DNA from: a virus | IMG/VR virus record: IMGVR_UViG_3300045988_007515 | Location: 1-39,688 of that record | Strand: one strand, 5' to 3' | Length of the DNA: 39,688 nucleotides | In this document: piece after piece, positions 4,990-31,425 of the stretch | How the letters are laid out: the number at the start of each line of letters is the position of its first letter | Numbering within the stretch: the stretch's first letter is position 1 | The notes under the pieces: generated by a model | The model's database searches: none | The model's input: the letters and a program-made list of their open reading frames with translations, nothing else | What the model was told of the DNA's origin: nothing | Position numbers and translations under genes: made by a program

Positions 4990-5099
4990 CCCCCGTCCCT
5001 TGCCCCGTCTCCGGGAGCGGGTTTCCAAAGGGAGAGGGCCGCAACCCCCGTCCCTTGCCCCGTCTCCAGGGGCTGGTTTCCAAAGGCGGGGGCCGAAGC
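4990..5099. repeat. two tandem ~55-bp GC-rich direct repeats
   Basis: cccccgtcccttgccccgtctcc...ggtttccaaagg at 4990 and again at 5045; first 23 nt and an internal 12 nt are identical. Confidence 0.85.
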
Positions 5100-5222
5100 C
5101 CCCGGCCTTTGTGCCAGAGGGGGTATGGGGGACGGTGGCGTCCCCCATGTTTCGGGTGGGGGTTTAAGGGGGAGGGACCTTTGCGCCAAAGGTTCCTTCC
5201 CCTTGCCCCCTTTGAGCGGTGC

Positions 5223-25817: not shown

Positions 25818-26000
25818 CTACATTTCTTCATTCAGCCAGCTTGCCCACGTCACCATGCGGGTATCATCGGCATTGGATAGCTTCTCTGGGTATTTCAGAT
25901 CAAGTGAGCAGCCCTTTGCTTCCAGCGCGTCATCCACGGCTTTTTCGATCAGCTCACCCAATCTGGCTGCGTTTTTCGTGTAAAACTCAAAGTTTGTCAT
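25818..26000 (-). CDS. hypothetical small protein
   Basis: 60 aa; ATGA-type overlap with the upstream gene. Confidence 0.45.
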   Translation of the reverse strand: MTNFEFYTKNAARLGELIEKAVDDALEAKGCSLDLKYPEKLSNADDTRMVTWASWLNEEM

Positions 26001-26869
26001 TCCTCAAACCCCCCAAGCACTTCCTGCCCCGGCAAAACGCCGTCCTCCATCCACCAGTGGAATACATCCACGCCGGAGCGCCAAGAGTATGCCTCCATGC
26101 CCCGTTCGATCCGTATTATCAACATTTTGTCAAACGAACGTATCCACGCTGCCTTGATCTCTGGATAGCGGGCAAATTCCATGATTCTGGTTTTGGATGC
26201 CATGGGACAGCCGATGCAACCAACCCGGCAGAATCCCTCGCAGTACAGCGGATTCATGGGTATTTTTTCTGCGCCGACGTAATCCCAAATATCTGCCGTT
26301 TGCCAGTCTACAATGGGGTTTACTACTCGTTTCCCCTTGAGCTGACACGTTTCAAATAATCGGCGATCCTCGTCGTTATCGTTTGATAGGATCAGTTTGT
26401 TTTGTGGCTTAGACGTTAATACCTCTAAGCCGCCGCGGCGTTTCCTGGCTGTGGATTCGGCCCAGCGAACACCCGTAGCGATAAACCGATCCTTGCCTCC
26501 CCCCTCTTTAAGGACGGCGCAACAGTACCGCATCAGGCGTGTGGGCGGCATGAGTTTCTTTTGAATCAGTTTCCACATGGTCATACGGGAGCCGTCCGGC
26601 TGGACGTGCTTGTCCACGTCGCACTTGATGCCCTTGCATTCCAGCCGATAAAACGTATCGTACACATGGCGCACCGTCTCCGGCGCGTCTGCCGTGGTCA
26701 GGCTGTGCAATACCTCAAATGGGATGCCGCTGGCCCTTGCCAGATGCAACAGTACATCGCTGTCCTTCCCGCCGGAGTAGGTAATCACCAACGGTTTTTC
26801 AAAAAGCCGTAGGCTCATATCCGATGCCGCTTTCAGCCGCTCGATGGCGGTCTGCTCCAAGTCGCTCAT
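25997..26869 (-). CDS. PAPS-reductase-family PP-loop ATP pyrophosphatase with DUF3440-like C-terminus (IbrA/DndC-like)
   Basis: VITYSGGKDSDVLL (SGGKDS PP-loop); C-terminal CRVGCIGCP Cys cluster; start MSDLEQ is ATGA-coupled to the methyltransferase stop. Confidence 0.75.
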   Translation of the reverse strand: MSDLEQTAIERLKAASDMSLRLFEKPLVITYSGGKDSDVLLHLARASGIPFEVLHSLTTADAPETVRHVYDTFYRLECKGIKCDVDKHVQPDGSRMTMWKLIQKKLMPPTRLMRYCCAVLKEGGGKDRFIATGVRWAESTARKRRGGLEVLTSKPQNKLILSNDNDEDRRLFETCQLKGKRVVNPIVDWQTADIWDYVGAEKIPMNPLYCEGFCRVGCIGCPMASKTRIMEFARYPEIKAAWIRSFDKMLIIRIERGMEAYSWRSGVDVFHWWMEDGVLPGQEVLGGFEE

Positions 26870-28260
26870 AAACTCTCCAATCTCCAATCATCGCCCCGCA
26901 CCTGAAACGCATCCCCCAACTGCACCGTTTCCGGGTAATTGTGCTGTGTGGTTTGGATGGCGTACTTGTCGATCTCGGTCGCATAGTAGGCAGTAACATT
27001 CACGCCCAGCTTGTCCAGCGCGATATGGCCGCAGCTCATACCGTCGTACATCGACAGCACTTCCACCGGATCCTCCGTCAGCCCTTCAAAGTGGCTCATG
27101 ATGTGCGCAATCACGTCCACCGTCCAGCCGTTGCCCAGCATCTTGTAGGCTTGGGTGTCGCTCACCGGGAAAACGTACTCCTCCGGCACGGTCTGGAGGC
27201 GCATACACTCGCGGACCGTCAGCTTGCGGATGATGTAAAAGCCGTCTCGCAACTTGATCGGATACCATGTGTTTCCGATGGAGATTTTCCCGTCTCGCAC
27301 CTCGTAAATTTGCTTCGCCGTCGTCGGGTTCTTTTGGCAATGCCCCTCCTCGTCTGTCTGCGTCGGGACCATAGGCACATGTCCGCCGCCCATGCCCATG
27401 CTTGCCGTGATGGTCGGGCATTTCCCATCCTTAGCAAACACGCCCCAGCGGGAGTGTTGGCCGTATAGACTGCCCAAATGCAAAATCCCATCTGCATCTG
27501 TGGCAACCGGCGTTGCATAAAGGCCCGTCTTGGCTCCCAGGCCGCCGCCATTCCCGCAGAGGGTTATGCTTTTGCCATCCGGGCTGTAAACACGGTATTG
27601 CTGGCTGTCAAAAGTCTGGTTCTTTGCGTCATTCTCAATGGTTCCGATTCTGACCGGCTCCGCTACACAGGTCTTGCGGTCTATGGTGTTGCCAACCATG
27701 TTACGGATACCGTCTTTGTAGTAGGTAGCCCGCAGACATTGGGCTTTACCGTCCACTGTCATGTTGACTGGCTCCGCCACGCCCATATAGCCAAAATGTC
27801 CATTCGTTTCGATGTGTCGCAAAACATTTGACACACCCTGTTTTGTCGCCGCACTCGCTCTCAATGTGTACGCTTTCTCGTGCCACGTCACAGCACCGCT
27901 TTCCAAAATGTCCCGCAGGAGGATCCCACGGTCCGCCGGCTGCTCCACTGCCACTTGGCTGTATGTACCGTCCGGCTCACGCTTGCCTACCCAATATAAG
28001 CGCTGGCGGTTCTGCGCCGATACCAGCGCGGAATTGATAAGCACGGGTTCCACGCCCAGCTCCTTGCTGATTTGTGCCTTGATGGCCGGTGCCATGCTTT
28101 TGTTATTTTCGTACAGGAAAAAATCCGGCTGGTACTTATCCCGTGCGATACGATAATTCAAGAACAGTTCCCAGCCGATGCCGCTGGCCTCTGTCTCCCG
28201 GTTCTTCGTCTGTGCGATGCTCCAATGGGTGCAGGGACTTCCGCCGATCAATAGTTTCAT
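26866..28260 (-). CDS. DNA (cytosine-5) methyltransferase, circularly permuted motif order
   Basis: Starts MKLLIGGSPCTHWS (motif IV), then FFLYENNK (VI), QNRQR (VIII), LTVRECMRLQTVP (IX) and GNGWTVDVIAHI (X). It ends with LSMYDGMSCG (I) and YATEID (II). The start is ATGA-coupled to the upstream ORF. Confidence 0.8.
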   Translation of the reverse strand: MKLLIGGSPCTHWSIAQTKNRETEASGIGWELFLNYRIARDKYQPDFFLYENNKSMAPAIKAQISKELGVEPVLINSALVSAQNRQRLYWVGKREPDGTYSQVAVEQPADRGILLRDILESGAVTWHEKAYTLRASAATKQGVSNVLRHIETNGHFGYMGVAEPVNMTVDGKAQCLRATYYKDGIRNMVGNTIDRKTCVAEPVRIGTIENDAKNQTFDSQQYRVYSPDGKSITLCGNGGGLGAKTGLYATPVATDADGILHLGSLYGQHSRWGVFAKDGKCPTITASMGMGGGHVPMVPTQTDEEGHCQKNPTTAKQIYEVRDGKISIGNTWYPIKLRDGFYIIRKLTVRECMRLQTVPEEYVFPVSDTQAYKMLGNGWTVDVIAHIMSHFEGLTEDPVEVLSMYDGMSCGHIALDKLGVNVTAYYATEIDKYAIQTTQHNYPETVQLGDAFQVRGDDWRLESL

Positions 28261-28589
28261 ACGTCCTCCACCTCCTGCATCCAGAACTCGCGGCGGCAAA
28301 TATCACAACCTCTTCCAGTCGGGCAATGTCCGCGTAACGTTGTATCAACAAGGCATGGGTTTAAAGCAACGTTATGTGTGTTCGTATATATTGGCGCATT
28401 TGGAAACTGTTCCAGAAACACGCTCTGGCGTGTTTTGATGGGGTGCTCGGTGGCCCACTGTTCAGCAGCTTCCACCATCCCTTCATAATCGTTCTTTTTT
28501 TGCGCAGATATATATTTTTGAATCGCACAATCTATCGTACCCGACCTCAACATCCGAGTAACTGCCTTCATACACTCCACAGCGTCCAT
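28257..28589 (-). CDS. hypothetical protein with C-terminal Cys cluster
   Basis: 110-aa ORF; CPTGRGCDIC. Confidence 0.5.
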   Translation of the reverse strand: MDAVECMKAVTRMLRSGTIDCAIQKYISAQKKNDYEGMVEAAEQWATEHPIKTRQSVFLEQFPNAPIYTNTHNVALNPCLVDTTLRGHCPTGRGCDICRREFWMQEVEDV

Positions 28590-29995: not shown

Positions 29996-30250
29996 TCATC
30001 CCCTCCTGAATTTTGGGCAGGCACGGACGCTGAAAGATTTCTCTACAAACTTCCCGCCGACCGTCCGTGTTGTGGCTATCGCATCCCATCCAGGAACCGG
30101 CTCAAACCGCGCCGACCACTCGCAGCCGCCGTATACATTGGCGCAGTCCCAACAGAGCTGCTGAGACTGGTACGTCACCTCCGGCGTCCTTGCCGCTTTC
30201 CATCTCCGGCATGGGCGCAACAGCTCGGCCAGCTTAAAATCTCCCGCCAT
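29996..30250 (-). CDS. hypothetical Cys-rich protein
   Basis: Start MAGDFKL shares 1 nt with the upstream stop (TGATG); 84 aa. Confidence 0.5.
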   Translation of the reverse strand: MAGDFKLAELLRPCRRWKAARTPEVTYQSQQLCWDCANVYGGCEWSARFEPVPGWDAIATTRTVGGKFVEKSFSVRACPKFRRG

Positions 30251-30990
30251 CACACATACCCCCAAGCGTCCTCGCATTTGCAGCCGGGGCCTTTTGCGCC
30301 CTTACGGCCACCGCGATCCTGTTCTTTGGCAAGCCAGCGAGTAATGAATCCACGCACACCACGCGCCGTTTTCCGCTTCGCCGGGTTATTCAGGCACCAT
30401 TCCCGCATCTCCCGCAACTGCTGTATCACGTCGACAGCAGGGTATACGCCTGCCCATTCCTGGCATTGCTCCTGCGACACCGGATATTCAGTGCCGTCAT
30501 TGAGGGGGATGGAAACCACCGGCGGGGATGCCGTTTGCGGCTCGCCGCCTACTTCTTCTGGATTCTGGATTCTGGATTCTGGATTCTGGATTGGATTACG
30601 GGCGCATTTGCTTTCACCTGCTTGCAATTGATTGCAATTGATTTCAGATGTAATCAATCCGTCAGCAGGTGCCGGGAATTTGCTTACTTTGTTCCTCACC
30701 GTCTGGTGTTCGCTCCAGTTTGGAAAACACAGGTACGGTTCTCCGTCAACTTCATAGAGGATCACAGAGCCTATGGTCGCCAATTCTGCAAGCGTCTTAC
30801 TGATCGTTCCCTCAGTCACACCTTTTCTGCGGGGAAATACAAAGCCTTTGAGCAATTCCGGGTCTGCGCTGCCGCGCCCATAATCATCAACGTAGGTGAT
30901 CAGGTACGCCCACAATCGGAATTGGAAATCCGACATTGCGTTGATGCTTTTGCTCGTCCTGATACTATCCTTGATGATCCTGTTCGGCAT
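30250..30990 (-). CDS. replisome organizer / replication initiator (DnaD/DUF4373-like N-terminus)
   Basis: 246 aa; FQFRLWAYLITYVDDYGRG N-terminal pattern; internal iteron-like repeats; lies next to ssb. Confidence 0.55.
   Translation of the reverse strand: MPNRIIKDSIRTSKSINAMSDFQFRLWAYLITYVDDYGRGSADPELLKGFVFPRRKGVTEGTISKTLAELATIGSVILYEVDGEPYLCFPNWSEHQTVRNKVSKFPAPADGLITSEINCNQLQAGESKCARNPIQNPESRIQNPEEVGGEPQTASPPVVSIPLNDGTEYPVSQEQCQEWAGVYPAVDVIQQLREMREWCLNNPAKRKTARGVRGFITRWLAKEQDRGGRKGAKGPGCKCEDAWGYV
30557..30591. repeat. five tandem copies of the 7-bp unit tctggat inside the replisome-organizer gene (iteron/origin candidate)
   Basis: Read directly; encodes IQNPESRIQNPE. Confidence 0.9.
30622..30641. 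repeat. two tandem copies of ttgcaattga (each contains the CAATTG palindrome)
   Basis: Read directly, 31 bp from the heptamer array. Confidence 0.85.
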
Positions 30991-31002
30991 TCAACCACCG
31001 CC

Positions 31003-31425
31003 TTAGAACGGGAGGTCCCCATCATCCTCAACCTCGCTGAAACCGCTCTGCGGTTCGCTCTGCGGTTCGCTCTGCGGTTCGCTCTGCACCGTGTCGCCGC
31101 CGTCCCGCTTGGAATCGCCAAAGTATACGCTGTCGGCCACGATCTCGGCACTGCGGCGCTTGTTGCCGTCCTTGTCCGTCCAGTCACGGATCTGCAGGCG
31201 GCCCTCCACCACGGCCATGCGGCCCTTAGAGAAATACTTGCTCGCAAATTCGGCTGTGTTGCGCCATGCCACCACATCGATAAAATCCGTTTCCTTCTCG
31301 CCGGACTGGGACTTGAAATCCCGATCCACCGCCACGGTGAAGGATGCGACCGCCGTGCCGCTGTTGGTGCGGCGCAATTCAGGGTCACGGGTCATCCGGC
31401 CCATCACAATAATTCTGTTCAGCAT
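31003..31425 (-). CDS. ssb: single-stranded DNA-binding protein
   Basis: MLNRIIVMGRMTRDPELRRT OB-fold start; acidic tip DDGDLPF; 140 aa. Confidence 0.9.
   Translation of the reverse strand: MLNRIIVMGRMTRDPELRRTNSGTAVASFTVAVDRDFKSQSGEKETDFIDVVAWRNTAEFASKYFSKGRMAVVEGRLQIRDWTDKDGNKRRSAEIVADSVYFGDSKRDGGDTVQSEPQSEPQSEPQSGFSEVEDDGDLPF
31045..31087. repeat. 3.6 tandem copies of the 12-bp unit gctctgcggttc (encodes the QSEP repeat in the SSB linker)
   Basis: Read directly. Confidence 0.9.

Follow-up and report, generated by a model that had tools for sequence, protein, structure and literature searches.

The Locus

The viral sequence IMGVR_UViG_3300045988_007515 of IMG/VR (39,688 nt, analyzed over its full length and referred to below as the window) carries on its minus strand a gene that apparently encodes a functional C5-cytosine methyltransferase (C5-MTase) with a circularly permuted chain. 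The conserved motifs occur in the order IV-VI-VIII, variable region, IX-X, and I-II-III, each of them once. By every homology criterion tested, the predicted protein belongs to the C5-MTase superfamily, from which it departs in chain topology only. The open reading frame (ORF) runs from 28260 to 26866 (ATG at 28260-28258, TGA stop at 26868-26866) and specifies a product of 464 amino acids (aa) that starts with MKLLIGGSPCTHWS and ends with TVQLGDAFQVRGDDWRLESL. A previous description of this DNA, made by a model from its letters (the sequence-only reading), was correct on the gene throughout, although it left the strand unstated. The features of the gene are as follows.

26866-28260, minus strand: complete permuted C5-MTase gene, 464 codons plus TGA (identical protein, P0001, on 9 contigs)
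28265-28276, minus strand: double Shine-Dalgarno sequence AGGAGGTGGAGG directly 5' of the ATG, within the end of the upstream ORF (read from the sequence)
28257-28260, minus strand: ATGA overlap ('tcat') between the stop of the upstream 110-aa ORF and the MTase start (from the sequence)
28219-28254, minus strand: motif IV LLIGGSPCTHWS, residues 3-14, with the catalytic Cys10; beta-strand 4 at the extreme N-terminus (alignment from DNMT3B 82 onward; DSSP strand at residues 2-7)
28099-28119, minus strand: motif VI FLYENNK, residues 48-54, with Glu51 (PDB alignment, conservation)
27994-28020, minus strand: motif VIII SAQNRQRLY, residues 81-89, with Arg85 and Arg87 (PDB alignment, conservation)
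27256-27960, minus strand: variable (target-recognition) region, residues 101-335, four modules (insertions and deletions, phrog_17284, low model confidence)
27184-27234, minus strand: motif IX IIRKLTVRECMRLQTVP, residues 343-359 (alignment from M.HhaI 272 onward; PF00145 profile positions 274-320)
27097-27147, minus strand: motif X YKMLGNGWTVDVIAHIM, residues 372-388, N377 conserved (PF00145, PDB alignment)
27067-27096, minus strand: X-to-I linker SHFEGLTEDP, residues 389-398, the new joint of the ancestral C- and N-termini (spacing; DRM2 alignment)
27028-27066, minus strand: motif I VEVLSMYDGMSCG, residues 399-411, with the S-adenosylmethionine (AdoMet) loop and beta-strand 1 (alignments, conservation, model)
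26968-26988, minus strand: motif II YYATEID, residues 425-431, with Glu429 (PDB alignment, conservation)
26911-26928, minus strand: motif III TVQLGD, residues 445-450, with Asp450 (relatives, conservation)
26869-26910, minus strand: C-terminal tail AFQVRGDDWRLESL, residues 451-464, left over from the III/IV loop; members of the permuted clade conserve R455 and W459 (invariant columns)
26866-26869, minus strand: ATGA overlap ('tcat') between the MTase stop and the start of a PAPS-reductase-like gene (from the sequence)

The ATGA at 28257-28260 agrees with the translational coupling of the start to the upstream ORF that had been proposed before. An alternative TTG start at 28299, which would yield a protein of 477 aa, was ruled out because the match begins at residue 1 for 119 of 120 close homologues. 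Of 75 genomic loci with the permuted order, 72 have an open frame of at most 41 codons ahead of motif IV and, therefore, no room for motifs I-III there.

Motif Order and Position of the Break

The Pfam profile PF00145 matches the protein with an E-value of 4.6e-30 (105.6 bits against a gathering threshold of 22), and the match is split into three separate stretches. Phmmer searches against the PDB align residues 397-440 with DNMT3B 11-56 (motifs I-II), residues 3-154 with DNMT3B 82-233 (motifs IV-VIII), and residues 345-388 with M.HhaI 272-315 (motifs IX-X). Consequently, the two halves of the protein have exchanged places in comparison with all bacterial and mammalian enzymes of solved structure, and the C-terminal segment does represent the first motifs of the family. 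Residues 366-452 align with DRM2 195-286 in one contiguous alignment across the X-to-I junction, DRM2 being the sole solved family where motif X leads straight into motif I.

The same picture emerged when relatives of canonical order were compared with the whole window by tblastn. Residues 66-509 of the canonical protein P0130 map to 28260-27097 (E=4e-120) and its residues 3-56 to 27066-26905 (E=9e-15). Neither part of the MTase gave any other significant match in the 39.7 kb and, therefore, each motif is present in a single copy. The window protein thus lacks the canonical linear order I through X, but this loss is a matter of topology, not of homology.

The loop between the GD of motif III and the LIGGSPC of motif IV measures 14 aa in 31 of 33 canonical relatives. 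In the window protein, 14 residues follow the GD at the C-terminus and MK precedes LLIGGSPC at the N-terminus, which places the break where the III/IV loop ends, so that it separates beta-strands 3 and 4 of the Rossmann-like sheet. At the new junction, 48 of 50 permuted representatives have a spacing of 26 or 28 aa between the GNG of motif X and motif I. The motif order, the break in the III/IV loop, and the lack of a second motif copy nearby had all been put forward in the sequence-only reading and are borne out by these alignments. Its comparison with Dcm-like enzymes holds for the contrast in motif order, but the closest solved relatives by sequence are of the DNMT3A/B type and not E. coli Dcm.

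Predicted Fold and Target

A shallow alignment (52 close homologues, at least 78% identity) gave an AlphaFold model with a mean predicted local distance difference test (pLDDT) score of only 35.8. This model was replaced by one (AF2) based on an alignment of 118 sequences, obtained after two further profile searches, which reached a predicted template modeling (pTM) score of 0.71, with pLDDT values mostly of 77-97 in the blocks of the catalytic core. The strand order of the model is b4-b7 followed by b1-b3, each strand occurring once (b4 at residues 2-7, b5 at 47-53, then b6/b7, the motif X helix at 381-388, b1 at 399-404, b2 at 422-428, and b3 at 446-447). The best Foldseek match is M.HhaI (E=4e-11; target-normalized template modeling score 0.56-0.58, a value that is limited because an aligner that depends on sequence order cannot attain the full score on a permutant), followed by DNMT3A/B, M.HaeIII, and ntDRM. 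The predicted fold is, accordingly, of the M.HhaI/DNMT3 type, and it comprises the two domains of C5-MTases, the small domain with the target recognition domain (TRD) being modeled at low confidence.

The fold could conceivably be completed in trans, with I-III of one subunit on IV-X of another in a domain-swapped obligate dimer. DNMT3A/B act as oligomers and their PDB matches are complexes. The class beta amino-MTases, also of the order IV-TRD-I, have been argued to act as dimers only (PMC7544214), and fragments of split C5-MTases can complement each other (PMC5944983). We nevertheless regard an arrangement of this kind as improbable. The length of the X-to-I linker is tightly conserved, the linker aligns contiguously with the junction of DRM2, which closes in cis in its solved structure, and AF2 puts the I-III block in cis with high confidence. 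Furthermore, laboratory single-chain permutants of the same type are active, and the dimer argument for class beta depends on the orientation of the TRD, which the permutation does not alter here. Folding in cis as a single chain is, therefore, the arrangement that we would expect.

The matches also bear on the target. The MTase gene is ATGA-coupled at its 3' end to the PAPS-reductase-like gene (25997-26869, minus strand; PF01507, phrog_424; PP-loop), and the two genes occur together on all 9 contigs of the window phage lineage. This might point to a target other than carbon 5 of cytosine in DNA, either RNA, as for Dnmt2, or a hypermodification step performed together with the PAPS-reductase-like protein. 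Such a target is very unlikely, however: the pairing is missing from all 64 loci compared in the wider family of permuted enzymes, the sequence and fold matches are DNA C5-MTases, and DNMT2 and tRNA MTases match weakly (E about 0.01). A functional link between the MTase and the PAPS-reductase-like gene was rejected, since their pairing is limited to the window phage lineage.

The variable region of 235 residues contains four modules of the form xGKxxx(T/C)(L/I)xA, ca. 50 residues apart, that start near residues 127, 170, 228, and 278. The similarity of module 3 to module 4 is significant (z=4.3), and phrog_17284, annotated as 'unknown function', matches the repeated TRD modules in three stretches (E=1e-63; residues 170-255 of the query). 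Among close homologues entire modules can be missing (residues 161-198 in 18 of 51, residues 253-297 in 2), and some have 53-95 additional residues inserted after residue 249. The presence of four TRD-like modules suggests that the enzyme may recognize more than one target sequence. M.SPRI, M.Phi3TI, and M.Rho11sI are multispecific C5-MTases of Bacillus phages with tandem short TRDs, each with a T-(L/I/V) core. Like the window enzyme, they are phage-borne orphans with several modules in tandem in the variable region, the four modules of the window enzyme being TRD-like. They differ in having the canonical motif order and in that multispecificity is only suggested for the window enzyme.

Residue Conservation and Selection

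The residues on which catalysis and cofactor binding would depend are conserved throughout the permuted group. C10 in the GGSPC of motif IV is present in all 53 permuted representatives that are ungapped at this site. Among 57 diverse permuted representatives E51 (motif VI, YENNK) occurs in 57, R85 and R87 (motif VIII, QNRQR) in 55 and 56, N377 (motif X, GNGW) in 57, D406/G407 (motif I, YDGMSCG) in 57, E429 (motif II) in 57, and D450 (motif III) in 53, with Asn in the other 4. The 41 canonical relatives do not retain these residues any more fully. Purifying selection acts on the relocated I-III block: the ratio of nonsynonymous to synonymous substitution rates (dN/dS; Nei-Gojobori) amounts to 0.07-0.25 in 7 comparisons, close to the 0.05-0.17 of the other conserved blocks.

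The arrangement resembles an incompletely decayed tandem duplication and could, in principle, represent a catalytically dead remnant, i.e., an N-terminally truncated MTase joined to what is left of the 5' end of a second copy that has disappeared, and kept, if at all, for DNA binding or regulation. This is hardly credible in view of the conservation of all catalytic and cofactor residues over the diverse permuted representatives and the low dN/dS of the I-III block. In addition, the arrangement endures down to ca. 40-45% identity in hundreds of genomes, and in permuted members the site of the catalytic Cys is still a target for inteins, which have to be spliced out again.

These inteins are located exactly at the catalytic Cys of motif IV (GGSP|CFVAGT...VVHN|CT[YH]WS) and occur in 5 of 57 permuted (e.g., P0254, P0242, and P0138) and 11 of 41 canonical representatives (P0137, P0187, and about 9 others). 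Their identity is confirmed by the Pfam families Hint_2, LAGLIDADG_3, and Intein_splicing. Those of P0254 and P0137 contain a LAGLIDADG homing-endonuclease domain, while P0187 has a mini-intein of ca. 155 aa. In the permuted hosts the N-extein measures only 10-11 residues (MIKMLIGGSP).

Recurrence in Phages and Prophages of Gut Clostridia

A protein identical over all 464 aa and in its boundaries is encoded on 9 independent contigs from different samples and assemblers, which differ in the neighbors upstream of the MTase. In three homologue searches the permuted order was found in 120 of 120, 118 of 120, and 114 of 116 sequences (352 of 356 in total), the counts referring to the matches listed and not to all candidates. 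The topology of the relatives was re-tested explicitly, full coverage of the query (1-464) being no proof of colinearity: the proteins of phages HTVC134P and Saba are listed with such coverage, yet they are canonical. A HMMER scan of 1.84 billion cluster representatives resulted in 1717 hits with E<=1e-30. The best 150 of these 1717, mutually less than 50% identical, comprise 69 permuted, 41 canonical, and 2 tandem proteins, the remainder being fragments.

In GTDB species-representative genomes, at least 565 relatives are present among the 600 pattern matches listed. A single ORF with the permuted order was found in 75 of the 80 GTDB loci kept (among the matches listed). These 80 loci belong mostly to Oscillospiraceae and other Clostridia, include cultured isolates, and lie on contigs that reach 980 kb. 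Among the matches listed, the nearest relative (80% identity) is encoded on a 40-kb contig of a Dysosmobacter metagenome-assembled genome. Permuted copies also occur in isolate genomes, such as that of Oscillibacter sp. 1-3 (813-kb contig), and in the deposited complete genome of phage nd4 (OR777945.1), where the protein is annotated as 'hypothetical protein'. In public databases the members of the clade are labeled 'cytosine-specific methyltransferase', 'DNMT3A', or 'hypothetical protein'. Hence, the view of the sequence-only reading that permuted C5-MTases are rare is not upheld, since the window protein belongs to a very large and diverse clade from phages and prophages of gut Clostridia. 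On the other hand, its view that the gene does not look like an annotation artefact agrees with the data, and the gene is not misassembled.

Although the window is a metagenome-type contig, an origin of the permuted order from a collapsed tandem pair, a circular contig opened inside the gene, or a miscalled start is effectively refuted by the 9 contigs, by the position of the gene inside the window with coupled genes on both sides, by the same order in Oscillibacter sp. 1-3 and phage nd4, and by the early closure of the frame ahead of motif IV at 72 of 75 loci.

The profile phrog_16427 ('DNA methyltransferase') spans the X-to-I junction contiguously (residues 342-442 of the query), i.e., the permuted order is already embedded in it, unremarked.

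Proposed Mechanism and Evolutionary Origin

We estimate a probability of roughly 80% that the gene encodes a single-chain, functional C5-MTase of the DNMT3-like phage subfamily that is permuted in the III/IV loop, serves the phage as an orphan enzyme, and acquired its topology by duplication and trimming. In such an enzyme the chain would open with the catalytic Rossmann-like half (IV-VIII), followed by the modular target-recognition region and IX-X. A linker of ca. 10 residues would lead to the AdoMet half (I-III), which would pack on the N-terminal strand and so complete the seven-stranded sheet. Cys10 would attack C6 of the flipped-out cytosine, with Glu51 and Arg85/Arg87 holding the base, and AdoMet, bound by motifs I-III and X, would donate the methyl group.

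The topology most likely goes back to a canonical gene that was duplicated in tandem and in frame and then lost its first I-III and its last IV-X, and the permutation may have arisen once or a few times and then spread through the phages of gut Clostridia. A tandem I-X/I-X protein trimmed at both ends would have exactly the observed order. Single ORFs with this tandem arrangement do occur in the family (P0123, 962 aa; P0236, 618 aa; P0273, 886 aa; P0468, 844 aa), of which P0273 was verified as one gene (L004, 4001-6661) on a 148.6-kb contig. P0392 (787 aa) combines a permuted module and then a canonical module in one ORF. The distance from GNG to motif I in the tandem proteins is 30 or 44 aa as against 26-28 aa in the permuted ones. 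In a neighbor-joining (NJ) tree the two modules of P0123 are mutual nearest relatives, within the canonical clade that adjoins the group of the query. The duplicate-and-trim route proposed in the sequence-only reading thus finds its predicted intermediates in the same family, and these extant proteins argue for it, although the route itself is one that we infer.

Several observations weigh against this interpretation, or parts of it. The variable region is poorly modeled (pLDDT below 50 for residues 122-316) and, for that reason, the model says little about DNA recognition. Motif I reads DGxxxG and not the consensus FxGxG, but the canonical relatives and DNMT3 share DGxxxG. The dS values are saturated in the more distant comparisons, where the dN/dS ratios are rough, and enzyme activity is deduced from sequence for every member of the clade. 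With regard to the origin, a Kimura-distance NJ tree requires one change of topology, but in only 106 of 200 bootstraps, and an NJ tree based on BLOSUM distances divides the permuted sequences into two groups. A single origin of the permutation is weakly supported.

Two further proteins of 787 aa (P0291 and P0293) carry a permuted C5-MTase and a D12-class N6-adenine MTase domain (PF02086) on one polypeptide.

Genomic Neighborhood

Two other MTase genes lie close to the C5-MTase gene, i.e., an MT-A70 gene (PF05063; 24019-24603, minus strand) and an N6_N4 MTase gene (PF01555; 28963-29619, minus strand). The same block contains genes for an HNH nuclease and a RusA-like resolvase, besides the PAPS-reductase-like gene. 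It fits an orphan anti-restriction methylation module, and the C5-MTase, one of the three MTases in the 6-kb block, would most likely serve to pre-methylate the phage DNA against host restriction. All three MTases within these 6 kb place the catalytic motif before the AdoMet motif, which is the class-beta order.

Elsewhere in the window, perfect tandem arrays of TTCTGGA (5.3 copies) and CGCTCTGCGGTT (3.7 copies) occur at 30556-30592 and 31044-31087, in and beside an ORF at 30250-30990 (minus strand). They are candidate iterons of a replication origin. A 55-bp tandem repeat at 4990-5213 (2.2 copies, 85% match) directly adjoins a tRNA-Arg(TCG) predicted by ARAGORN, whose 97 nt are unusually long for a tRNA. 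This region is a candidate attachment site, or else the tRNA-Arg(TCG) call is false.

Comparison with Known Methyltransferases

The nearest enzymes of normal order are the canonical DNMT3-like phage C5-MTases, i.e., gp5 of Pelagibacter phage HTVC134P, gp007 of Proteus phage Saba, and the metagenomic proteins P0130 and P0144, which belong to the same subfamily. Their identity to the query ranges from 31 to 50% (31-34% for HTVC134P gp5 and Saba gp007, up to about 50% for P0130 and P0144). They share with the window enzyme the motifs DGxxxG (I), SEIDKYAI (II), GD (III), LIGGSPC (IV), ENN/ENV (VI), SAQNRxR (VIII), and GNGWT (X), as well as a multi-module variable region. However, in the canonical relatives I-III are N-terminal and joined to IV (...LSLFDGMSCG...SEIDKYAI...LGD-(14 aa)-LLIGGSPC...), whereas in the window enzyme the 14-aa loop is cut and I-III follow X via the linker of ca. 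10 aa.

In the plant DRM enzymes motifs VI-X precede motifs I-V, the chain being opened between V and VI. DRM1/2 (PDB 4ONJ, 7L4C) resemble the window enzyme in being DNMT3-related and in having the same X-to-I junction, and ntDRM is among its Foldseek matches. They differ in being eukaryotic, in carrying UBA domains, and in acting in RNA-directed DNA methylation. Motif IV of the window protein lies at residues 3-14, so that only the X-to-I junction is held in common with this type.

Other natural permutants are of a different kind. According to Albert et al. (2018, PMC5944983), a REBASE scan for motif X before motif I yielded 27 natural enzymes, all broken in the variable region, of the M.BssHII type with the order IX-X-I...VIII. 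Members include M.BssHII, M.Alw26I, M2.Eco31I, M.Esp3I, and M2.BsaI (PMC5944983). Since only this type was found, these authors concluded that natural permutations are uniform, leave both domains intact, and that evolution favors such breaks (PMC5944983). The window enzyme resembles the M.BssHII type in being a natural C5-MTase circular permutant with motif X covalently before motif I. It does not have its N-terminus in the variable region, however, but starts at motif IV, with the variable region internal. In the M.BssHII type the domains remain contiguous, whereas here the large catalytic domain itself is broken, with beta-strands 3 and 4 on either side of the cut. The claim of the sequence-only reading that M.BssHII and the plant DRMs break elsewhere agrees with the DRM2 alignment and with PMC5944983.

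The topology has counterparts among laboratory permutants. New N-termini between II/III or III/IV gave active forms of M.HaeIII, M.MpeI, and M.SssI (PMC5944983). Albert et al. (2018) made cpM.MpeI and cpM.SssI of types B and C, and their designed permutants with N-termini between II/III were active. Activity was also retained by evolved M.HaeIII permutants (Peisajovich, Rockah and Tawfik, 2006, as cited in PMC5944983), whose chains begin within III or on either side of it, between II/III or III/IV. Permutation by duplication has been demonstrated experimentally for M.HaeIII (cited in PMC5944983). Judging from the Discussion of Albert et al. (2018, PMC5944983), the III/IV break would correspond to their 'Type C'. 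The laboratory enzymes are alike in that they are active single chains with an N-terminus at II/III or III/IV and tandem-duplication intermediates, but they are artificial, and the REBASE search of Albert et al. (2018) gave no natural enzyme broken in this way.

For 5-methylcytosine (5mC) MTases, Woodcock et al. (2020, PMC7544214) likewise speak of 'one alternative permutation' in motif order, and they define the class beta amino-MTases by the order IV-TRD-I. This linear order is shared by the window protein and by M.PvuII, M.RsrI, CcrM, and MT-A70/METTL3. Yet class beta enzymes use a (D/N/S)PP(Y/F/W) motif IV (with Y/F in these examples) on an exocyclic amine, whereas the window enzyme has the PC of GGSPC, which would act on carbon 5, and matches PF00145 and not PF01555 or PF05063. 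It is not a member of class beta; the order is common to both, the ancestry is not. We found no description of a natural III/IV-permuted C5-MTase in open-access full text, the only literature covered by the search, and a prior mention elsewhere is possible.

Implications

C5-MTases have been treated as the sole class of DNA MTases with an almost fixed motif order. The protein described here represents a known enzyme in a topological variant that is real and abundant and has apparently not been described before. Its interest derives mostly from the very large size of the clade, from its contradiction of a published generalization, and from the survival of the presumed evolutionary intermediates. 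The odds lie somewhat in favor of this being the first recognized natural C5-MTase clade permuted inside the catalytic domain, in the III/IV loop and with the class-beta order, represented by thousands of phage and prophage genes of gut Clostridia, with canonical sisters and tandem intermediates still extant, so that the pathway of permutation by duplication can be read from it. The 'uniformity' reported in 2018 would then be a sampling effect. A large natural clade that is broken within the catalytic domain contradicts the generalization that natural prokaryotic C5-MTases are permuted in the M.BssHII way only (Albert et al., 2018; Woodcock et al., 2020), and its topology matches the products of directed evolution.

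Annotation by motif order and REBASE-style scans miss or under-describe permuted enzymes, as illustrated by the 'hypothetical protein' of phage nd4, and studies of gut-phage methylomes should expect 5mC from them. With canonical, tandem, and permuted forms coexisting at 50-60% identity, the family offers a natural system for the origin of new protein topologies.

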